From positions 1 through 12,344 of the forward strand of contig NZ_JAEDAM010000029.1 of assembly GCF_018420025.1 (NCBI RefSeq): a DNA stretch of 12,344 bases, given 5' to 3'. A model generated the notes under the pieces. That model had not been told where the DNA came from. It ran no database searches and saw only the letters and a program-made list of their open reading frames with translations. Source of the stretch: Candidatus Vampirococcus lugosii (GTDB lineage: Bacteria; Patescibacteriota; Gracilibacteria; Absconditabacterales; Absconditicoccaceae). Shown in pieces: positions 1-12,344 of the stretch. Made by a program: the position numbers and the translations under genes. How positions within the stretch are numbered: the first letter of the stretch is position 1; the number at the start of each line of letters is the position of its first letter.

Positions 1-2040
1 ACAATGTCAAATATCCACTTTACCATTAGACTTAAATACTATTTGAAATCTACTTTCATATTCTTCAGCACCTGCACTATTTCATTGTACTATTGTTCAT
101 TTTCTTGTAAAAGTTTTTTCATGACCAAGTTTAAGAGTAACTGGACTATATTTTCAAGAATTTACTTTAAAACTATTTTGAACATTTTTCCAATCTCAAT
201 CAACTGTAATAGTTTTATTATTTGGATCATATTTTATATTCCAATTATGATGTGTTGCACCTCATTTATAAGTTGTACTTTTTTTCTGCACTTCTAAATT
301 AACTTTTTCTTTCTTATTCCTTTTATTTACATCTTTCTTATCTTCTCAATTTCAATTAGATTTAGGTTTACATTCATAATATCATTGAACTTCTCAACAT
401 TCACAACTATCATGAGGAGGTCAACTAGTTACAGTTCATGATGCTTGCCATATACAATTAACTCCTGTTGTATCTTTTTTATTTGTATTTTTTTTATCTT
501 TTTTATTTCAAGTTATACCACCATCTGGACTAGTTGATTTACCTCAACCTTTTTCATTAATAGTTTCCAAAACCATAATTTCATAATTGATAAGTATCGG
601 TTCTAAGATATTCCAATAACTGAAATCTTTTGCAGCTTTTTTAATTTCACTTAATCCTTCCAATTTTTTTAACAATCATTCAATACCTTCATTTTTAAGT
701 TTTCAGTTTTGTTTAGATAATTCTTCCTCAACAAATGCATTATATACCAATTTATTTGATTCACTCAAATTTCAAACCTTACTATTTAATTCTTTCCTTA
801 AATTAGATAATTTATCTCATAAATTACTATCTCATAAATTACTATTATTTCAATTATTTCATCAATTACTATTATTTCAATCATTTCATTGATTATTATT
901 ATTAGTATAAGTTTTTAGAATATCTCTTAAATTAAACTCACAACTAATATCAGTATAACTATCCCAATTTTTATTAGACAAATTATATACTTCATCACAC
1001 CTTAAAATACAATCTTCTTCAGTTCTAACAGAATCATCATCAAATAATATTTTTGATGATGATTTTATTCTACAATTACGAGGAGGAGATACATTTTCAA
1101 TATCATTTTCATTTCAAGAATCTTTTTTATTCCAAGAACCATCATTTGTTGTAGTTTCTCATTTTCAAGGACAATAGCCATGTACTTTTTCATCACAAAC
1201 AACACATGATTTTAAATCATTATCAAAAATATATCAAAAATCACAAGATTCATGAATTCTTTCTTCTCAAATTTTAGTAAACTCTCAATTATTACAAACA
1301 AAATCTTGTTTTTTATAAGTAAGTCTAACTTCAGGATTATTAGATTTATCAACAATTTTAGTCGCTGTAAATACTGATCAATTAGGTACATTATAATTTT
1401 TACTAACACCTTGATTACTACCAATATCATGACTATTAAGTCAATATCAATCTATACTTGTTGGTCAACATCAATCTTCAATATTTGTAACAAATGAAAA
1501 TCAATCATCAGATATAGTATATCAAAAATCAAATTCAAACTTTATTTTTTCATTTGATGCTCTTTTAAGTTGTCAATCTTTAGTACATTGAAAAACTTTA
1601 GTTTTTATAATAGTTCATCATTTTACTTCAAATTTTTTAACAAGAGTTCTTACATATTCAGGTAATATAACTCTATCAATAACATATCAATCTATATTAG
1701 TACCCTGTGAACAACTATAATTTGTATCATCTCAAGGTAAAGCTATACAAGCATCAAAAGAAGGAGATAAAGTATATCAATTATTACATTCAATAATTTG
1801 TTCTTCTAATTTCCAATCATTCATTGGTGATAAAGTTGCTCTACATGAATACTTTCTTTCTATATTTCAATTTTGTATTTCTTTTTCTAATTTATGATAA
1901 CTTGTCCAAGTTTTATTAATATCTTCAGGTCTAGATTTTGGAAGATCTCAAAATCAAGAAATATTTGTTTCTGGACATTCTGCAAAAGAAAATCATAAAT
2001 ACAAAAACAATCATATAACAAATAAAAATATTTTTTTCAT
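1..2040 (-). CDS. Secreted cysteine-rich protein of unknown function with an N-terminal signal peptide. Partial: the C-terminus lies beyond the left edge of the window (680 codons visible, table 25).
   Basis: ATG at 2040-2038. I read all 680 minus-strand codons down to position 1 and found no TAA or TAG, but about 48 in-frame TGA by hand count. The N-terminus MKKIFLFVIGLFLYLGFSFA/ECPE looks like a classic signal peptide with an AxA-like cleavage site. Many Cys residues follow (for example CSQG, CGPT, CVVCDEKVHGYCPG, SCECGEVQGYYEC), plus a Gly/Asn-rich linker. I recognise no family. Confidence 0.8.
816..890 (-). repeat. Tandem direct repeats inside CDS 1..2040: a perfect 15-bp unit x2, overlapping a 27-bp unit x2. 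They encode a Gly/Asn/Ser-rich low-complexity linker.
   Basis: The plus-strand unit ctcataaattactat occurs at 816-830 and again at 831-845, both perfect. aattactattatttcaatTatttcatC (837-863) is repeated at 864-890 with 2 mismatches. Translated in table 25 this region reads ...NNNNQGNDGNNSNGGNNGNNSNLGDSNLGDK... Confidence 0.85.
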
Positions 2041-2042
2041 AA

Positions 2043-2066
2043 TAAATATATAAATATATAAATATA
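2043..2066. repeat. 8-bp AT microsatellite (taaatata x3 perfect, with a further 1.6 copies at 2073-2085), immediately upstream of the start codon of CDS 1..2040.
   Basis: Read directly: taaatata at 2043-2050, 2051-2058 and 2059-2066. It lies in the 157-bp gap between two minus-strand genes, so within the presumed promoter or 5' UTR. Confidence 0.6.
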
Positions 2067-2197
2067 TAATACTAAATATATAAATTTAATATTATTCTAT
2101 AAGTATAATTATTTTTTTTAAAATTTCAAATCTTTTATTTTATTATAAATATTTGATTAATTGAAAGATTTAGAAATTGTATATTACAAAGATGAGA

Positions 2198-3313
2198 TTA
2201 AAGTCTAATTTTAGTTGTATCCCAAGGTCTTCGTTCAGGATTTTCAATAGCCTTTTCTGTATTTTTAGTATCTGTATATAAATAATTATTATCAAGTAAA
2301 TTTTCAATATAATTAAATTTACGATGTAAAATTAAACTTGTTTCCGCCATTTGTTCAAAAACTCAATAATGATTAATATACATATTAATACTTTCTGCAA
2401 AATCTTCAAAAGGGTTTGTCATAGCATATCAACTTACAAAATCAAGACGAGATTTTCAAGATTTAGTAGTATCTTCTGAAAGCCATGAATATGAATAAAA
2501 ATCTATAGAAGGATCATCCAAATAAAATTTTTTCTTCCCAAATTCTGTAAAATTAGAATCTAATTTTCATCAACTTCATTTAATAACTCATAAATCAATT
2601 ATATGTCATAATTCATGTGTAAAAACTTCCATAAATTCTATTTTATTTGAAATTCATGGTAAATTAATAAGCATAGTATGATGACCTGCATATCATCTTC
2701 TTCAAGTTCATTTTTGATCAATTCTTAAAGACGACATTATATTTGAAATTTTTTCAGAACTATTTAAATATTCATCAATATTATTAATTATATATATAAT
2801 AATAGCTTTGTAATATAATCTTTGTGTATTAGAAAAATCACCTATAAAATGAGTAAAATCACAAACATAAAGATTTAAACTACAAATTCTATTTATATCA
2901 TTTTGAGTATATTTATTTTTTGCAGATGAATGTTCTTGTTTTATTGCTTCATTGAATATATAATATAGAAATCTTTGATTTTTTTGCTTTTCAAGTTCTT
3001 TTTCTTTAATTTTTTCTTGTATATTATTTTTTTCTTGATTTTCTTGTATATTTTCTTTATTTATTTTTTCATCAGATATATTTTTTTCAGAAATTTTTTC
3101 ATCTTGTTTATTATGTATTTCATTATTTATTTTTTTTTCATTTAATATATTTCTTTCAAATTTTTTATTAGTTAATAATTCATCCAAAACTCTATCATGC
3201 CTTTTATCAAAAGTTTTAACTCATACTTCAGGTACATACAAAATAAGTCAGTAAATAAAAACAAAACTTCAAAAAAATATTTTGGAAATAAAAATAAATA
3301 ATTTTGGCAACAT
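2198..3313 (-). CDS. Membrane-anchored zincin-type (HExxH) metallopeptidase, 371 aa, with a Lys/Glu/Asn-rich linker.
   Basis: ATG at 3313, TAA at 2200-2198, and no TAA/TAG in frame (checked triplet by triplet). The N-terminus MLPKLFIFISKIFFGSFVFIYGLILYV is a hydrophobic anchor. The HExxH motif FTHELGHIIDLG sits at 2603-2617, and the Gly in HELGH is a TGA codon. The downstream motif NPFEDFAESINMY resembles the Glu-ligand motif of gluzincin/MtfA-like peptidases. The standard-code ORF 2708..3187 is an internal fragment in the same frame. Confidence 0.8.
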
Positions 3314-3350
3314 AATTTTTTTTTAATTTTTAATATAATAAATTTAAATA

Positions 3351-4541
3351 TTATTTTAATTGTAAAATATCATAAAAGTCAGCATATCAATTTACTGATT
3401 TATACAATCAATCTTCAAATAAATCAATAAATCATATACTCTTTATATATTTATATATATCATCATTAAATTTTTTTTCAAATATCATTTTTGAAATAGT
3501 TTCATCAATTTTTATTATTTCATTTACTGGAACTAATCAATCATATCATTTATCACATTTATCACAAGAATTTTTATTAGCAAAATGTACAATAATATTT
3601 TTATCAATATTAGAAATTTCAAAATCATTTAAATTTATTTCTTTTTTTATACAACAATGATGACATAATTTTTTAACTAATTTTTGATAAATAACAAATT
3701 TTAAACCTGTAGCAATCAAATGATTTTGTATTTGCAATTGTTGAAGTCTACTAATTATTGATAATGCACTATTTGCATGTATGCTTCCAAAAACAATATG
3801 TCCTGTATTTGCTGTTTCTAAACAAATAGATGCAGTATCTTTATCTCTAATCTCTCATACTAATATAATATCTGGATCTTGTCTTAATATTCAATTTAAT
3901 CATTTTTGAAAAGTAAAATTTTCTTTTTTATCATTAGTTTTTCTATTAGTGACTTCAGATTGAATATATCCTGGTATAACATATTCAATCGGATCTTCCA
4001 ATGTAAAAATAGTTTTTTTATTACTATCAAATGTTCATAATATAGAATATAATGTTGTTGTTTTTCAACTTCAAGTACCACCAGCAACTAATACTAATCA
4101 ATTTTCCAAGTTTGAAATTGATTTTAATTTTTCCAAATTTTGTTTAGAAAACAATAAATTATCTATACTTATATGAGTTTGATCAGTAATAAGAATTCTC
4201 ATAACTAGATTCTCACCAAATATAGTTGGCATAGTAGATAATCTTAAATTTAATGAAACTGGTTTTCCTCAAAGATTTAAATTCATAGGTATTTTTCAAT
4301 CTTGAGGAATTCTTGTTTCATTAAAATCTAATCATGAATTGTTTTTCAAAACATTTAATAATTTATAATTTCTTTCATGAGTAATTTTTCAATAAGTTTT
4401 CATAACTCATGCTATTCTAAATCTAATTAATACTTCATTTTTAAATGGAGTTATATGTATATCAGAAGCATTATTTTTTAGTGCTAAAGAAACTATTTTT
4501 CTCAAAAATAAATTTGGATCAAAAGATGTATCTTTTATCAT
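3351..4541 (-). CDS. GspE/PilB/ComGA-family type II secretion / type IV pilus assembly ATPase. Compact form of 396 aa with no long N-terminal domain.
   Basis: ATG at 4541, TAA at 3353-3351, and every codon checked with no TAA/TAG. The Walker A motif LVAGGTGSGKTTTLY is at 4053-4085, and both the 4th and 6th residues of GGTGSGKT are TGA codons. Also present are the Asp/Walker B box RQDPDIILVGEIRD (Gly = TGA), the His box TGHIVFGSIHANSA, and the tetracysteine motif CHHCC...CDKCDKGYDG that is typical of GspE/PilB and absent from PilT. The standard-code ORF 3546..3737 is an in-frame fragment. Confidence 0.93.
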
Positions 4542-4581
4542 TAATTATATATTTTATATTTAAATAAAAATATACTTAAAT

Positions 4582-6351
4582 TTAATTAGATTTTCTATTA
4601 AATTTAAGATCTCATATTTTTATATATTCAGGTAATTTAATTATATTTCAAATTTGCAAATAAGCTCAAGATTCTTTAAAAAATCTTGAATTTAAATTTT
4701 TATTTCATTTATTAAAATCAATAATTTTATTAATTATATTAACAATATCATTATTTTTTTTAAATCAATAATTATTTTTTACAATATTCCATAAAGTATC
4801 TCAACTTTTTACTTTATAATCTATACTAGAAATATTTTCTTCTTCAATATTATTTTCATATACACTATCTTGTCTATCATAAGTTCATAAAGATTCTTGT
4901 GATTTTCATTCAACACTTTTTTCCTCTATATCATTTCTATATGTAGGAGGTGTTATTCTATAGCTAGGTACAGGTCTTTTATATCTACCATATTTACCAT
5001 AAGCAACTATTTCTTGTTCTGTTTTTTTTGCTTCTTTTTCTACTTCTATCTCTTTTTGTGATTTTGATTGAGATTTTTCAGATTTTTCATTTATATTATA
5101 ATCTAAATCTAAATTTTTTAAATAAAAATTTCATTGTTCATCTTTTGTCTTAAGTAAATATCTTCAAGAATTTACTACAACTTCTCAATTTCAAACATCA
5201 GCTCTTCATATTCAGAAATTATTCAACGACATATTTGATAAATCTTGTTTTACTCAAATATAACGAAGTGCTTTTATCAATCAAGAATCAGTTTCAATAC
5301 TATTTCAGATATCAATTTCATTTTCGTCAAAATTTATTTTTCAATTATAAAAAATCATTAATTCTTCATATACAATATCTATCAAATTATTTGTTAAAGT
5401 TATAGCTTGATCAAGATCTCACTTGTTTAATTTTTTGTATATATTTATAAAATCTTTTTTGTAAGAATTATCATTGTAATTTAATTCTAATACTCATAAA
5501 AATAGTTCTAATCTCTTAAATTTTTTACCATATTCTGTAAGATTCCATTCTTCATCAAAAGTATTATTCAAAATATTATCATTATCTACATTTCAAAAAG
5601 TACTAGCAACTAAATAAGTTTCATTAGTAATAATTGCTATATATTCAGAGTATGTAAATACTTCTTTTTCCTCATAAGAAGTATTACTGATATTATCATA
5701 TAATACTAATTTACTAGTAATTTCACTGTCGTTAAATCGTTTTTTATCTTCTTGAGTATGTAATGAATCCATTATTTTATTCAAAATCTCTATATTATAA
5801 AATCATTTTTTTCAAAATCTTGATCAATTTGATTTATTTTCTTGAAAATTTATAATATTTTTAATTTTGGAATATAAACTAATTCTATTTTCTAAATCTA
5901 CTAATGTCATTCATTCAGGCAAATTTAAAATCCATTCTTTAAATTCAGGAAATTTTTCTTTCAAAGAAAGAATTCTATTATTTTCTTTTATTAGATAATC
6001 CAATGAATTTTGATTTATACCCAAATTACTTCTTATATCTCTCAAAGATATTCAAACATTATCAATAATTTGATCAGTTTTATTTTTTTTATAAATTTCT
6101 AATTTTACAATTTCATCAATAAGATCGTAAAAAAATTTTGATAAATGTTCTTCATTTTCTCATAATGAATTTAAAATAAAATTTTTAAATTTTTGAATTT
6201 GACTTTTATTTGTCCAATCTATAGATTCCAAATCATAATTAAAATCGTATATAGACATTATGGGAGTAAAAAAATCTACCCAGTCTACAAATTCTATATT
6301 TTCATTAGATCTTTCATTTTCTTCTATTATATATTCAAAATTTTCTTTCAT
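4582..6351 (-). CDS. 589-aa protein of unknown function with a C-terminal LysM (peptidoglycan-binding) domain. No recognisable signal peptide or TM segment.
   Basis: ATG at 6351 with a TAA two codons upstream; TAA at 4584-4582; all 590 codons checked with no TAA/TAG. The C-terminal sequence YKVKSGDTLWNIVKNNYG...LQIGNIIKLP (about 4630-4822) matches the LysM pattern (x-V-x-x-GDTLW-x-I ... G-x-x-L-x-I/LP). The track ORFs 5593..5784 and 6160..6351 are in-frame fragments. The N-terminal ~500 aa is acidic and Asn-rich, and I recognise no family. Confidence 0.8.
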
Positions 6352-6500
6352 TTTTAAAATAAAAAAATAAATAATATATCTATAATATACATTATTTATT
6401 TTTTGTCAAAAAATCGTGTTTATTTTTGTTTAAACTTATCTTTGTAGAGTAAAATTTCTAAATTCTTGATCTAAACAAGGATTTGCAAGAAAATAAAGAT

Positions 6501-6537
6501 AGATTTGTGTACTACACAAATTTTATAATTTTATTTT
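6501..6537 (+). terminator. Weak AT-rich hairpin followed by a T-run, resembling an intrinsic terminator. T-rich flanks occur on both strands. It has no obvious upstream gene.
   Basis: The stem atttgtgt (6503-6510) pairs with acacaaat (6514-6521) around the loop act, and can be extended by A-T and G.U pairs to 10 bp. It is followed by tttataattttatttt. On the minus strand the same hairpin is followed by ctttattttctt. The stem is AT-rich with a 3-nt loop, so it could arise by chance in this composition. Confidence 0.25.
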
Positions 6538-6680
6538 AAATAATTTAAATATTTTTTCTTGAAGCTCATTTATTTATTTTACTTTATTTATATGTATATT
6601 ATATATTTTAAAGTAAACTTTACTTATACAAAGAAATTGCCTACAGAATCAACAAAATTCACTCTTTTCTTTAATTTAGG

Positions 6681-6714
6681 TGCAGAAGGTTAGCATAAAA
6701 TCTAATCTTCTGCA
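6681..6714 (+). other. A 13-bp stem-loop, the most stable local structure in the 488-bp intergenic region. Possibly a 5' UTR element or part of a small RNA.
   Basis: tgcagaaggttag (6681-6693) pairs with ctaatcttctgca (6702-6714) around the loop cataaaat. There are 12 Watson-Crick pairs plus one position that is G.U in a plus-strand RNA but C/A in a minus-strand RNA, which favours a plus-strand transcript. No U-run follows, so it is not a canonical terminator. It is noticeably more GC-rich than its surroundings. Confidence 0.35.
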
Positions 6715-6839
6715 ATAATAAAAATAAAAAAAGTTTGAAAAGTTAATTAAGAACTAATAAAAATAATAAATAAAAAAGGTGTAATTAGTGGAAATTTATG
6801 AAAAAATATGTAGAAAGGAGGTATTAAAATTAAGTTTAA

Positions 6840-7148
6840 ATGTTTTTAAATTTTAAAATATTAATTTTAATTTATTTTATTGCTTTAATTTTTTTAATTA
6901 TTTTAAGTTTTTTCTTTAATTATATATTAATATTATTAATATTTATTATGTTTATTCCATTTTTAAGAATTTTTTATATCAGAGAATTATTTTATGATTT
7001 TTCTATAAGCTTGTATAATTTTTATAATATTTGATTTTTTGATAATATTGAAAAAGAATTTATTAAAAATAATGAAGAAAAAAATAAAGAAAAAGAAAAA
7101 GTTGATTTTAATTCTGAACTTGATGAATTAAAAAATAAAATAATTTAA
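6840..7148 (+). CDS. Hypothetical small membrane protein, 102 aa, with a hydrophobic N-terminal half and a charged C-terminal tail.
   Basis: ATG at 6840 (preceded in frame by TAA), one internal TGA at 7032-7034, and TAA at 7146-7148. The first ~60 residues are rich in Phe/Ile/Leu, enough for 2 TM helices. The tail reads NIEKEFIKNNEEKNKEKEKVDFNSELDELKNKII. Caveat: T-rich DNA produces this kind of ORF by chance, and I recognise no conserved motif. Confidence 0.45.
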
Positions 7149-7171
7149 TTATTAAAATAATTTTATTGTAG

Positions 7172-7930
7172 TTAATATTTAAATTTTGTACATTTTTCAA
7201 AATTTATTTCTTCAATTCATATTTGTTTTTTTAAATTATTTATTCTAGTTTCTGTCATAGGATGAGTTCCAAAAAATTCTACAAATTTAGGATTTTTAGA
7301 TTGATTTTTTTGAAAAAAATTTAAAACACATCAAGGATTTAGTCATTTTTTTTGTACAAAATTTATTCAATAATTGTCTGCATTAATTTCCATATTTTTA
7401 CTTAATATATTTCACATCATTGAAGTAATTTGAGAAAAATCAAATCAAATATTGTATCAAATATATGAAAAAGTAGTTTGAAATGGAAAATTTGTTGTAA
7501 ACATTCTTAATGGATCCCTGTTTTCTATATGACCTTTTTCATGTCATATTACAAATAAAATTTCTTCTTCATATTTTATTTCTTCCAAAAGTCATTTTGT
7601 AATTGCTATATTTCATCATATACTTGCAAATGCATTAGCATCCTCAATATCCCGTAAATATAAATTGTAAGGAAAATCTTCTAATTTATTTCAAAATATT
7701 TTTTTATCAAATTTTGAAAAATTTTCTTCATTTTTTAATAAATTTCAAAACATTTTTATCTCTTTTTCCAAAGATATATTTGCTATAATTACATAAGAAA
7801 ACATATAAAATCACAAAAATCATACAACAATAAATATTATTAATATAGAAATCATTTTGATTCACCATTTTATATTTGGTCTTGATGGAACTGTTTCATC
7901 TACTTGAATTGGTAAATTTATTTTTTTCAT
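7172..7930 (-). CDS. M48-family zinc metalloprotease (HtpX/BepA/LoiP-like), 252 aa, with an N-terminal membrane anchor.
   Basis: ATG at 7930, TAA at 7174-7172, and all codons checked with no TAA/TAG. The motifs occur in canonical M48 order: NAFASIGGNIAITKGLL (GG = two TGA codons), HExxH as VIGHEKGHIENRD (7529-7543), E-x-x-AD as MEINADNYG, and the C-terminal THPMTETRI. A TM segment ISILIIFIVVGFLGFYMFSYVII lies near the N-terminus. Confidence 0.9.
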
Positions 7931-8023
7931 GTTTTTTTAGATATAATTGATTTTTAAAAAAAAATGATTATCTTTAAACAACTAGTTATTTATTTTTAAT
8001 AAACATTAAACTTAATAAATCTT

Positions 8024-10513
8024 ATGAAAACTAATATTAAATGTCCAGAGTGTCAAAATAGTTTTGAAATACAAGAGAATAAATTAGAAAAAGACATAGA
8101 ATGTCCTCATTGTTATAATGTTTTTTCTCCCAAAATGCAAGATAAAAATGAAATTTATCAAAAAAATAAAGAGTTTAAACCATATAAATCAAGTTATATT
8201 ATTTTTAATTCTTTTTTGTTATGGCTATGAATTTTGTCTGCAATTATTTCTCTTTTCTTAATATTTTTTTTAGGAAAAGTTTTTGCTATATTGTTTATTG
8301 TTTCTTTTATAATATGAGCAATAGGTTTTTGGTTGGTAAATATAATGTATGATAAAGAAAGATATTTAATAAAAGATAATGAAATTATTTATTGATATTG
8401 AACATTATTTCAAGATAATGAAGTAAAATTAAATTTTAAAAAAATAGTGCAAGTAAAAACTACTTTATGATTTTTTCAATGGAATATTTTTGGTACTTGA
8501 ACTGTTATTATAAAATCTGCATGAAGTGGTACTACAAATGTAAATATATATAATGTAAAAAATCCACTTCAATTACATAATTTAATACATTCTGTTATGA
8601 AAGAAAATGGATTCAATCTTTCAAAAGAAAAATTAGTTCAGGAAGCTAAACCACATACTTTATGAGTTATATTAGATATTTTAGGTAAATATTTGTGAAT
8701 TATAATATTTATTCTTGTACCATTAATTCCAGCAATATTAGATATAGATAATCAAGTAAATTTAATAATAAATTTATGATTTATTTTAATTTTATTACTT
8801 ACAGTTATTATACCTACAATATTTTTGTATTTGGATACGAAAAGAAGATATTATAGAGTTTTTACTGATGCAGTATATTTTACTGATTGATTTTTGACTA
8901 GAAGATATAGTTTTATTCCTTTTGAAAACATTTCTGATGTTGCTAATGATCAAAATTTTTTGGAAAAAATATTTGGTATTCATGATGTAAGATTAAGTTG
9001 ACAATGAAGTAATAATCAATTTATATTCAAAAATATTCTTTATTGAGAAATTATGATGGAGAATATAAGATATCTTAAAGATAAAACTATTTTATCAACT
9101 AGTTCTCAAAAAAATAATTTTGAACAAAAAGAAAAATCTTGAAATCTTGTTGAAGAAAATTGAAATATTGATAATGAAATAGATGAACAAATATGATATA
9201 AAAATTACTTGGAAGAAGCTTTGGATTATGATAAATCTTTTGAAGCAAGATATAAAATGGATATGTTGAAAAGTATTGCATCTACTATTCCATTTATTAT
9301 TATTCCTCCTGTATTTATAATACTTTTAATTTACAAAATAATAATTGTAAAATCATATGATTTTGTAGTAAAAAAAGATAGTATAGAAAGTCAATTTAGT
9401 TTTCTTAGCAATAAACAAGATATTTTTAGTATAGAAAGAATTACAAAACTTAATTTTGAAGAAAGTTTAATAGATAAATTATTTTGAACTTGTAGTATAA
9501 GATTTAGTTCAATTTGATCTTGATATGATATTGTTTTTAGAGACATAAAAAAAACAGAAAATTTATATCAAAATATTAAAAATAAATTATGACTTAAAGA
9601 AGATAATTTATTGAAAAAATTTGATATAAATTTTAATATAATTGAATATATTAAATCAGAAATATTAACAGTTATTACTTTTGTATCAATATTTATACCT
9701 TTAAGTATATTTTTAATTTTTTTTACTTATAGAATAGAAATATTTTTTTCTGTATTAATTTTATTTATTTTGATATTTCTTATCAAAATATTTTATCTTA
9801 AATATTATTATTCTTCAGATTGGTATTATCACAATATGTACAAAAATATGATTGAATCTATTAATTGAATAATTATTCAAAAAAAATCTTATTCATTGAT
9901 AAGATATTTAAAATGAATTAAAATAAAAAAATATCCATTTACTAATACTTGAAGTATTTATATTAATGTTGCTTGAGAACAAGTAATAAATACAAATAAC
10001 TGAAATTATGTAAAATCAAATTATATACAGATAGATTTTATTAAAAATGTTTTTGAAAAACTTAATCAAATTGATCAATTATTATCAGTAAATAAATTAG
10101 ATACTACTGAATTAAAAAATGATAAACCTTGTATATATAATTCATTAGTTCCTTTATTTATAGTTTTATTTATTTTGTGTGCTGTTTTAATGTTGCTTGA
10201 TTTAATATTATGAATTTTATGATTAATTATTTCAATGATTATAATATTTTTGATACGATGGTATATTAAAATACAATTTTTTAGTATTCAAAAAGATAGA
10301 GTATTATATAGTTATTGAATAATATATAAAAAATATCATAGTATTAGATTAGATAGAATAGATTTTGTTGAATCATATCAATGATTAATAAATAAAATAT
10401 TTAAGAATTGAAATGTTTATATATATACTATATGAAGTTCAAAAACAGAAATGACTGTCAATAATATTGATGATTATCAAGAATTTTATCAAAAATTAAA
10501 GGATTATAAATAA
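8024..10513 (+). CDS. 829-aa polytopic membrane protein: an N-terminal MJ0042-type CxxC...CxxC zinc ribbon followed by five repeated modules, each a TM segment plus a bPH_2/DUF304 (YdbS/YdbT-like bacterial PH) domain.
   Basis: ATG at 8024 and TAA at 10511-10513. I checked 8222-9209 codon by codon and read the rest sequentially; no TAA/TAG. The track ORFs 8024..8230, 9209..9487 and 9611..9868 are all fragments in this frame. The zinc ribbon is MKTNIKCPEC...IECPHC (8042-8113). Five modules each pair a hydrophobic stretch with a ~70-aa soluble domain ending in a Gly-rich strand: IIKSAGSG (8516-8530), VRLSGQGS (8996-9010), IRFSSIGSG (9509-9523), YINVAGE (9968-9979) and YIYTIGSS (10427-10441). Module 2 reads YRVFTDAVYFTDGFLTRRYSFIPFENISDVANDQNFLEKIFGIHDVRLSGQGS, which fits the DUF304/bPH_2 consensus well. 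Confidence 0.85.
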
Positions 10514-10559
10514 TAAATTATGAGTTATTTAATAAATTAATAATTTAAACCAAAATACT

Positions 10560-11678
10560 ATGTTAAAAATTCAAAAACTGAAATTACAAAATATAGATAA
10601 TACTGCTGAAAATATTGAAATAATATGAAAACTTTTTCCACAAGTAATTACTGAAAAAGAAGATGAAAATTGAAAAATAATTAAAGCAATAGATTTTGAT
10701 TTATTAAAACAAGTACTTTCCAAAGATTTGGTAGAAGATAATAATGAAAGATATCAATTAAACCGACCTTGAAAAAAAGCAAGTATTCTCAAAGCTAATA
10801 CTCCTATAAACAAAACTTTAAGACCTGCACCAGATGAAAGTGTAAATTTTGATAATACTGAAAATCTTTATATTGAATGAGATAATTTTGAAGTATTAAA
10901 AATTTTACAAGAATCATATTTATGAAAAGTTAAGATGATTTATATAGATCCACCATACAATACTGGTCAAGATTTTGTTTACAAAGATAATTTCAAAAAA
11001 TCAAAAGATGATTATGAAGATGATTTATGAGTAGAAGATGAAGAGTGATGAAAGTTATTTAAAAATACAGATACTAATTGAAGATTTCATAGTGATTGGC
11101 TAAGTATGATGTATGAAAGACTAGTTGTTGCTAGAGATTTATTAAAAGATGATTGAGTTATTTTTATGAGTATAGATGATAATGAAGTTCATAATCTAAG
11201 AAAAATTGCTGATGAGATTTTTGGAGAGGAGAATTGTGCATGAGTTATAACTATTTTAAAATGAAATGCACAAAATGATGCTGAAAATATACAAGTTAAT
11301 CATGAATATGTTTTATGTTATATTAAAAATAATATTAAAATAAGAAATATAAAATCTGAAAAAATTTTAGTTTTCAAAGATCAAAAATGATATTATTATA
11401 AATGAAGTTGAATAACAACTGGATGAGAATGATGAACATTAAAATCAAGACCTAATTTAGGTTGGACACTATATTATAATCCAACTACTTGAGATAAAAT
11501 AATTAAAAATGATTATAATAAAGAATTAATAAATACAAGTAATGATGAAGAAATTATATATGAAAACGACAATATATTATTACAAAAATGATATAGAATT
11601 ATTAGAGCCCCTAAAAAAATGAAATGAATTATGATGTTGGACTTGGCAATTTTCAAAAGCAAAAGATGAGCTTTATAA
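10560..11678 (+). CDS. mod: Beta-class N6-adenine DNA methyltransferase (type III Mod-like), fragment 1 of 2: N-terminal region, catalytic motif IV and most of the target-recognition region. The frame ends at a TAA 57 nt after an A7 tract.
   Basis: ATG at 10560. The sequence ...TENLYIEGDNFEVLKILQESYLGKVKMIYIDPPYNTGQDFVYKDNF contains DPPY at 10947-10958. It continues GRFHSDWLSMMYERLVVARDLLKDDGVIFMSIDDNEVHNLRKIADEIFGEEN. The conserved Gly of KDDGVIF is TGA at 11154-11156, while the conserved Trp of HSDWL is TGG at 11097-11099. RPNLGWTLYYNPTTGDKI is typical of this family. The frame-0 stop is TAA at 11676-11678. Confidence 0.9.
11613..11619 (+). repeat. A7 homopolymer at the exact point where the methyltransferase reading frame switches.
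   Basis: The sequence is gcc cct aaaaaaa tga aat gaa. With 7 A the upstream frame runs into ...MKGIMMLDLAIFKSKRGAL* and stops. With 6 A it reads APKK-GNELGCWTWQFSKAKDEL..., joining the two family-typical halves. Confidence 0.9.
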
Positions 11679-12344
11679 TTTATGAATAACCGATAGTTTT
11701 AATATTTATAAAAAAGAATATATAAATGAAAAATATGTTATAAAGGAAAATGATAAATTATATTTTATAAAAAATAAAGAATTTCCTATTAAATCTTTTA
11801 TTGAGATAAAAAGTTGAACTTGAACAACTAACTTAAAAGAATTGTTTAATAAATGAAAAGTATTTGATTATTCAAAAAATGAAAAAATGATTTTTGAATT
11901 AATATCTAGAGTAGAAATGAATAAAAACGACATAATCCTAGATTTCTTTTCTTGATCAGCAACAACAGCACATGCAGTAATGCAACTAAATGCAGAAGAT
12001 GATTGAAATAGAAAATTTATTATGGTACAAATTCCTGAAGCTACTGATGAAAAATCTGAAGCATACAAAGCTTGATACAAAAATATTTGTGAAATATGAA
12101 AAGAAAGAATTAGAAGAGCTGGGAAGAAAATATTGGAGGAGATGAAAGGACAAGATCTCTCGGCAAGCTCAAGATGACAAGAGTCTGTCATTTCGACCGA
12201 AACGAAGTGAAGTGGAGAAATCTCAAAACAAGATCCCTCGACTTCGCTCGAGATGACACAAGAAGAGAAATCTTTAGACATTTGATTTAGAGTTTACAAA
12301 GTAGATTCTAGTAATATAAAAGATGTTTATTTTCATCCAAATGA
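11620..12344 (+). CDS. mod: Beta-class N6-adenine DNA methyltransferase (type III Mod-like), fragment 2 of 2, in the +1 frame. It contains the AdoMet-binding motif I and the C-terminal region, and continues beyond the right edge.
   Basis: This frame (positions congruent to 1 mod 3) is open from 11533 to the end of the window. A gene caller would probably start it at ATG 11542. It reads GNELGCWTWQFSKAKDELYNLGI...TNLKELFNKGKVFDYSKNEKMIFELISRVEMNKNDIILDFFSGSATTAHAVMQLNAEDDGNRKFIMVQIPE (motif I, DFFSGSATT, at 11941-11970) ...ICEIGKERIRRAGKKILEE...LDIGFRVYKVDSSNIKD. Motif IV lies before motif I, which is the beta permutation seen in type III Mod and some type II enzymes. Confidence 0.88.
12153..12258. 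repeat. Locally GC-rich composite element made of three related ~27-38-nt units in direct / inverted / direct orientation, embedded in frame in the methyltransferase linker. Possibly a miniature palindromic or mobile-like element.
   Basis: Unit A is agatctctcggcaagctcaagatgaca (12153-12179). Unit B is tgtcatttcgaccgaaacgaagtgaagtggagaaatct (12186-12223), whose reverse complement is agatttctccac...tcgaaatgaca. Unit C is agatccctcgacttcgctcgagatgaca (12231-12258). A and C are roughly 80% identical. The 3' end of A is complementary to the 5' end of B at 9 of 11 positions, and the 3' end of B to the 5' end of C at 9 of 12. The element is translated in frame as QDLSASSRGQESVISTETKGSGEISKQDPSTSLEMTQ. 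The lack of stops on the opposite strand creates the spurious 137-aa track ORF 11868..12281. Confidence 0.65.

Follow-up and report, generated by a model that had tools for sequence, protein, structure and literature searches.

Reading frames and coding content

The stretch of DNA analysed here is the 12,344-nucleotide contig NZ_JAEDAM010000029.1 of ‘Candidatus Vampirococcus lugosii’, referred to throughout as the window, and its feature of interest is the genetic code in which its genes are written. The guanine plus cytosine (GC) content is 20.5%. Under the standard bacterial code (translation table 11) the longest open reading frame (ORF) encodes 159 amino acids (2708..3187), as the initial annotation had stated, only three stop-to-stop frames have at least 100 codons, and ORFs of at least 60 amino acids cover 27.6% of the window. 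Comparing coding density between codes, as that annotation had advised, gave a clear outcome: with TGA read as a sense codon, gene models cover 92.8% of the window and comprise eight genes. The frames free of TAA and TAG then measure 836, 695, 615, 397, 380, 374, 270 and 254 codons; counted from the first ATG, they encode 829, 680 (partial), 589, 396, 372, 371 and 252 amino acids. Seven long frames of 252 to 829 codons had been described initially. The frames are indeed open, but their number is eight, because two of them are the halves of a single frameshifted methyltransferase.

Reading TAG as sense instead of TGA brings no gain, and reading TAA as sense produces only many short overlapping frames. 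The longest run free of TAA and TAG averaged 98 codons in 200 shuffles and never exceeded 149, versus 836 observed, and the base composition gives a chance of about 4e-29 for 829 open codons. The gene models with TGA as sense contain 188 TGA, 47 GGN and 25 TGG codons. All five of the stop codons counted are TAA, and in-frame TAA or TAG is absent across about 3,700 codons. If TGA is read as glycine, this amino acid makes up 6.3% of residues and TGA supplies 188 of its 235 codons (80%), in agreement with the earlier impression that TGA is the favoured glycine codon.

The glycine translations of five genes are identical to GenBank proteins of V. lugosii (exact protein matches: g2, MBS8121995; g3, MBS8121996; g4, MBS8121997; g5, MBS8121990; g6, MBS8121991). 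The organism, one of the Absconditabacteria (SR1) within the Candidate Phyla Radiation, belongs to the phylum Candidatus Absconditibacteriota in the NCBI taxonomy, and the expectation that the source would lie among Gracilibacteria or Absconditabacteria was therefore correct.

Several genes of recognizable family bear on the code. On the minus strand, g3 (3351..4541) encodes a GspE/PilB-type secretion or type IV pilus ATPase with exactly 17 TGA and 8 GGN codons, the approximate counts given initially. Two further minus-strand genes encode peptidases: g2 (2198..3313; 15 TGA) is a putative zinc metallopeptidase with a HELGH motif and a weak match to Peptidase_Mx (26.9 bits; cut-off 27), and g5 (7172..7930; 16 TGA, including those of NAFASI-GG-N) is an M48-family metallopeptidase with HEKGH and the only CGG of the window. 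On the plus strand, g6 (8024..10513; 32 TGA) encodes a membrane protein in which a zinc ribbon is combined with repeated bPH_2 domains, and g7 (10560..>12342; two frames, 10560..11678 and 11533..12342) encodes a Type III Mod-like N6-adenine DNA methyltransferase and continues past the right end of the window.

UGA as a glycine codon

Searches against Pfam with TGA decoded in three ways ranked glycine above masked and masked above tryptophan in all five domain matches. The respective scores were 321.6, 289.5 and 275.9 bits for T2SSE, 89.0, 75.0 and 63.9 for Peptidase_M48, 126.6, 80.6 and 60.9 for bPH_2, and, for N6_N4_Mtase, 69.7, 64.4 and 54.5 in the N-terminal half of the methyltransferase and 40.5, 27.4 and 20.8 in its C-terminal half. 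The glycine reading, which had been proposed from motifs, is the best-scoring one in each of these domain matches. The motifs cited for it are all present (GGT-G-S-G-KTT, LV-G-EIRD, HEL-G-H, NAFASI-GG-N, KDD-G-VIF, DFFS-G-S and KS-G-DTLW), and both invariant glycines of the g3 Walker A motif (GGTGSGKTT, 4059..4085, minus strand) are written TGA.

Solved structures point to the same amino acid. When the ATPase is aligned with Vibrio GspE (4pht), TGA coincides with glycine at 11 of the 15 aligned positions and with tryptophan at none; the glycine matches include both Walker A glycines and that of LVGEIRD. The M48 structure 3c37 and BepA have two adjacent glycines at NAFAxxGG, where the window has TGA, and EcoP15I Mod has glycine at several TGA positions of the methyltransferase (LNWxGK, IKGDN, KEDG and DFFAGS).

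We also applied a small codon-by-column test along the lines of Codetta to the methyltransferase and the M48 peptidase, using 108 and 103 standard-code-like homologues, respectively. Over 40 columns TGA scored +81.9 bits for glycine, -56.8 for alanine, the next best residue, and -104.0 for tryptophan; the majority residue, where a column had one, was glycine in 22 of 25 cases. All other codons with at least three columns decoded as in the standard code. At the DNA level, the TGA codons of V. lugosii lie opposite TGA 46 times, GGN 26 times and TGG not once in six recoded relatives. In relatives that had been mistranslated with table 4, mixtures of tryptophan and glycine occur at exactly the TGA columns.

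Genetic code 4, in which TGA means tryptophan, is found in Mycoplasmatales, Entomoplasmatales and some insect endosymbionts. It would suit a very low GC content and a TGA that is clearly sense, and public Logan gene calls give tryptophan in these same genes. Nevertheless, tryptophan translations score below even the masked ones in every Pfam family, tryptophan is strongly disfavoured at the TGA columns and missing from those aligned with GspE, relatives exchange TGA with GGN and never with TGG, and the proteins would hold about 5.7% tryptophan and about 1.3% glycine. We consider code 4 scarcely conceivable here, and its dismissal in the initial annotation stands. Less credible still is a standard-code organism with decayed pseudogenes in which TGA marks true premature stops: 188 in-frame TGA codons face not a single TAA or TAG, where base composition predicts four times as many TAA as TGA, the TGA codons fall on conserved glycine columns within full-length domains (such as T2SSE, at the score given above), and the orthologues of relatives preserve the same reading frames. 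These observations outweigh the lack of any intact gene under table 11 and the real frameshift that the methyltransferase carries in this assembly. Selenocysteine was ruled out by argument, as 188 codons at glycine columns cannot be selenocysteine. Table 4, pseudogenes and selenocysteine are excluded because Pfam scores, solved structures, the codon-by-column test and the DNA of relatives all give glycine.

It is also very unlikely that this DNA comes from a phage or mobile element belonging to a recoded host rather than from the chromosome. Its methyltransferase of restriction-modification type and its many hypothetical proteins specific to the lineage would fit such an origin, but no family of phages or mobile elements turned up in the Pfam scan of the window, the genes are those of a cell (a pilus or secretion ATPase, an M48 peptidase, membrane proteins), a homologue of g2 lies near a T2SSE gene in the 1.13-Mb chromosome of Candidatus Absconditicoccus praedator, and the contig is assigned to the V. 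lugosii genome (PMC8080830). A phage or mobile origin would in any case leave the conclusion on the genetic code unchanged.

CGA and CGG as probable tryptophan codons

In Absconditabacteria, CGA and CGG have been predicted by Codetta to be reassigned from arginine to tryptophan (Shulgina and Eddy 2021, PMC8629427); V. lugosii was not found in the portion of the supplementary files of that paper covered here. The two codons are rare in the window, with four CGA (10764..10766; 2231..2233, minus strand; 5737..5739, minus strand; 10256..10258) and one CGG (7652..7654, minus strand), compared with 87 AGA, which carries nearly all arginine. The GenBank proteins have arginine at the CGA and CGG positions. 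Two of the five codons coincide with columns of tryptophan or aromatic residues, and no case on a conserved arginine column was seen.

The clearest case is codon 69 of the methyltransferase (CGA, 10764..10766), which encodes the residue before PGKK in ERYQLN-x-PGKK. Of 119 homologues, 117 have tryptophan here, as does EcoP15I Mod. Both homologues annotated with arginine are themselves TGA-recoded, and for the one whose DNA we checked (P0076, at locus L001 of a relative) the codon at this position is CGA, the only CGA of that gene. The initial annotation had noted that conserved tryptophans are written TGG; this holds for HSDWL and GDTLW, but the family-invariant tryptophan of LNWPGK in the methyltransferase is written CGA.

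The second informative codon is codon 361 of g2 (CGA, 2231..2233, minus strand). Among 60 lineage-specific relatives, its column holds arginine in 30, tyrosine in 13, tryptophan in 9 and phenylalanine in 5, and two nearby columns at which V. lugosii has TGG are divided between tryptophan and arginine (32 to 27 and 34 to 25). For four relatives with DNA, among them the complete genome of Candidatus Absconditicoccus praedator, each apparent arginine at columns 277, 361 and 364 is written CGA or CGG. In the same four, the conserved arginine one or two positions off, at column 362, uses AGA or AGG. Across six relatives, CGA and CGG codons lie opposite TGG of V. lugosii five times, opposite its CGA four times and opposite AGA or AGG never. 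An extra CGA just beyond the window, on a longer contig assembled from the same organism, favours tryptophan over arginine by 1.5 bits (PF09820).

The competing explanation is that table 25 is complete as it stands, with CGA and CGG meaning arginine and ordinary substitutions accounting for the two CGA codons that coincide with tryptophan or aromatic columns. GenBank and the genome paper (PMC8080830) translate the proteins in this way. Several further observations weigh against a tryptophan meaning. Of the five codons, only two carry information; the CGG of the M48 peptidase lies in a column of isoleucine, valine, serine, leucine and methionine, with neither arginine nor tryptophan seen, and the CGA of the bPH_2 protein (10256..10258) lies in a column of alanine, threonine, phenylalanine and isoleucine. 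Exchanging arginine for tryptophan shifts no Pfam score by more than 1.5 bits (1.5 for AAA-ATPase_like, none for M48), which is uninformative. Column 600 of the bPH family, with its mixture of tryptophan and arginine, was tried as further evidence for the tryptophan reading and discarded, as its DNA is AGG, a true arginine. No tRNA gene was found in the 12,344 nucleotides of the window, and hence neither a tRNA-Gly(UCA) nor a tRNA(UCG), and the scan for tRNA(UCG) described below recovered no V. lugosii contig among its 47 loci.

Nonetheless, arginine at the tryptophan of LNWPGK would be unique among the 108 standard-code homologues, and the arginine exception checked by DNA proved to be a TGA-recoded relative using CGA there. 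The contrast in g2 between apparent arginines at tryptophan or aromatic columns, always CGA or CGG in four relatives, and true arginines, AGA or AGG, also speaks against ordinary substitutions, as does the finding that CGA and CGG of relatives are never opposite AGA or AGG of V. lugosii. The prediction by Shulgina and Eddy is also clade-wide (PMC8629427). We consider an unmodified table 25 unlikely. Judging from these sequence comparisons, CGA and CGG probably mean tryptophan in V. lugosii, and the organism probably uses a code with three changes, UGA to glycine, CGA to tryptophan and CGG to tryptophan. The initial proposal of table 25 is accordingly upheld for UGA, and as a description of the whole code it is probably incomplete, as CGA and likely CGG appear to mean tryptophan. 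We know of no NCBI table number for a code in which CGA and CGG are tryptophan.

Taken as a whole, we regard it as nearly certain that UGA encodes glycine and is the main codon for it in this region, that UAA is a working stop and that the window derives from the chromosome of V. lugosii, with CGA most likely, and CGG probably, read as tryptophan.

Possible decoding by tRNAs

From the literature on the clade, we predict that UGA would be read by a tRNA-Gly with anticodon UCA and that release factor 2 (RF2) may have been lost. RF2 is encoded, and tRNA-Gly(UCA) is missing, in two Gracilibacteria that have retained UGA as a stop codon, and the glycine identity elements described for tRNA-Gly(UCA) are G1:C72, C2:G71, G3:C70 and U73 (PMC8629427). 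A search for tRNA-Gly(UCA) in six loci of relatives (L001-L006) found only tRNA-Leu(CAA) and tRNA(UCG).

For tRNA(UCG), the tryptophan identity features are G73, the absence of A20 and A/G1:U72 (PMC8629427). The tRNA(UCG) of one relative (locus L005, 9854..9925) has G1:U72, the discriminator G73 and U rather than A at position 20, and is thus of tryptophan type without the A20 of arginine tRNAs. A pattern scan of species-representative genomes recovered tryptophan-type tRNA(UCG) at 47 loci (L007-L053), mostly in genomes of SR1/Absconditabacterales type. In 12 of these 47 loci it adjoins tRNA-Trp(CCA), at a distance of about 10-70 nucleotides. The two tRNAs are only about 60-70% identical, and we do not claim that tRNA(UCG) is a recent copy of tRNA-Trp(CCA).

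The methyltransferase and its neighbourhood

Both halves of g7 match PF01555, the similarity to EcoP15I Mod (4zcf) has E = 4.9e-59, and the motifs DPPYNTG and DFFSGS are present. A single surplus A in a run of seven (11613..11619, plus strand) breaks the gene into its two frames, and removal of one A gives a continuous Mod protein. In the Logan assembly of run SRR13241709 (L054), which derives from the same organism, the run has six A and the gene is intact, with 707 amino acids. The seventh A may be an amplification or assembly error, or it may reflect real poly-A phase variation.

The same Logan assembly extends past the right end of the window, where a DUF4391 gene, a gene for an AAA-ATPase_like/PDDEXK_9 protein and a ResIII gene follow mod (5562..9672 of L054). 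These downstream genes place the methyltransferase in a Type III restriction-modification neighbourhood. With its N6_N4_Mtase domain, DPPY motif, similarity to EcoP15I Mod and a Res gene downstream on L054, g7 has the features of a Type III Mod, although it is frameshifted in the window assembly. A similar set, comprising an SNF2 helicase, DUF4391, Mod and Res, occurs at locus L001 of a relative.

Other genes and intergenic DNA

The left end of the window is occupied by g1 (1..2040, minus strand), which encodes a protein of the secreted or surface type, bearing an N-terminal signal peptide and truncated at its C-terminus by the start of the window. This gene contains 48 TGA codons and has no Pfam match. 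To the right of g3, g4 (4582..6351, minus strand) encodes a hypothetical protein of 589 amino acids with 27 TGA codons, the CGA at 5737..5739 and a LysM-like motif, YKVKSGDTLWNI, near its C-terminus. The initial annotation had named a LysM domain with KS-G-DTLW. The motif is there, but the domain match, in the C-terminal part of the gene (4582..4850), is sub-threshold, scoring 16.3 bits where 20.9 would be needed, and covers 12 of 43 model positions, at the start of the model only. The rest of g4 has no Pfam match. A small predicted membrane protein of 102 amino acids (gx, 6840..7148, plus strand) contains one TGA, and the gene is also called in the Logan assembly.

Between the divergent g4 and gx lies an AT-rich gap of 490 bp (6352..6839) with an 8-bp inverted repeat, TGCAGAAG ... 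CTTCTGCA, near 6680..6715. A scan of 6300..7200 for promoters and terminators found sites no more frequently than in shuffles. A search of the whole window against Rfam returned only a chance miRNA match (E = 0.2) and nothing in 6352..6839, and tandem repeats are limited to low-complexity AT-rich arrays.

Discussion

That UGA encodes glycine is already known for the phylum and for the V. lugosii genome, and nothing new comes from UGA itself. The code with UGA as glycine was reportedly described by Campbell et al. 2013 and Rinke et al. 2013. For Vampirococcus, Moreira et al. (2021, PMC8080830) stated the change of UGA to glycine and called genes with Prodigal and table 25. Their paper places the contig in the V. 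lugosii genome. It also refers to type IV pili, to restriction enzymes and to eight methylases, in keeping with the gene content of the window. The modest addition of our analysis is that CGA, and probably CGG, means tryptophan in V. lugosii, which we consider probable.

Neither table 11 nor table 4 gives a correct annotation of this contig. Proteins mistranslated with table 4, with tryptophan at invariant glycines, account for about 10 of the 119 best homologues of the methyltransferase and for 21 of 150 M48 homologues. Such entries contaminate homologue sets and bias a naive column count towards tryptophan, and alignments and screens for codon reassignment may be misled by them. Database matches from code-25 organisms that we noted as mistranslated are P0019, P0025-27, P0034, P0041, P0048, P0060, P0076, P0112, P0119 and P0132-P0140.

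If CGA and CGG do mean tryptophan, each of these codons in the published table-25 proteome of V. lugosii is wrongly given as arginine, including the invariant tryptophan of LNWPGK in Mod. The code predicted by Codetta for Absconditabacteria would then extend to the predatory member of the phylum that has been studied best, within a region of 20.5% GC, and one more lineage would be added to the sense-codon reassignment of the Candidate Phyla Radiation. To our knowledge, the change of CGA and CGG to tryptophan is the only sense-codon reassignment known in that radiation.

Compared with known systems, the window shares with code 4 the conversion of UGA from stop to sense in an AT-rich, reduced genome; it differs in that the amino acid is glycine and TGG stays an ordinary tryptophan codon. 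With the known code 25 of Absconditabacteria it has in common UGA as glycine, UAA as stop, a low GC content and the phylum itself, and the contig was deposited with table 25. For UGA there is no difference, and the window adds quantitative confirmation and the dominance of UGA among glycine codons. Set beside the code predicted by Codetta for Absconditabacteria, which was inferred genome-wide, our case draws on two codons and comparative data, and it agrees with that code in the rarity of CGA and CGG (4 and 1 in about 3,700 codons), in the use of AGA for arginine and in the presence of CGA on an invariant tryptophan column.

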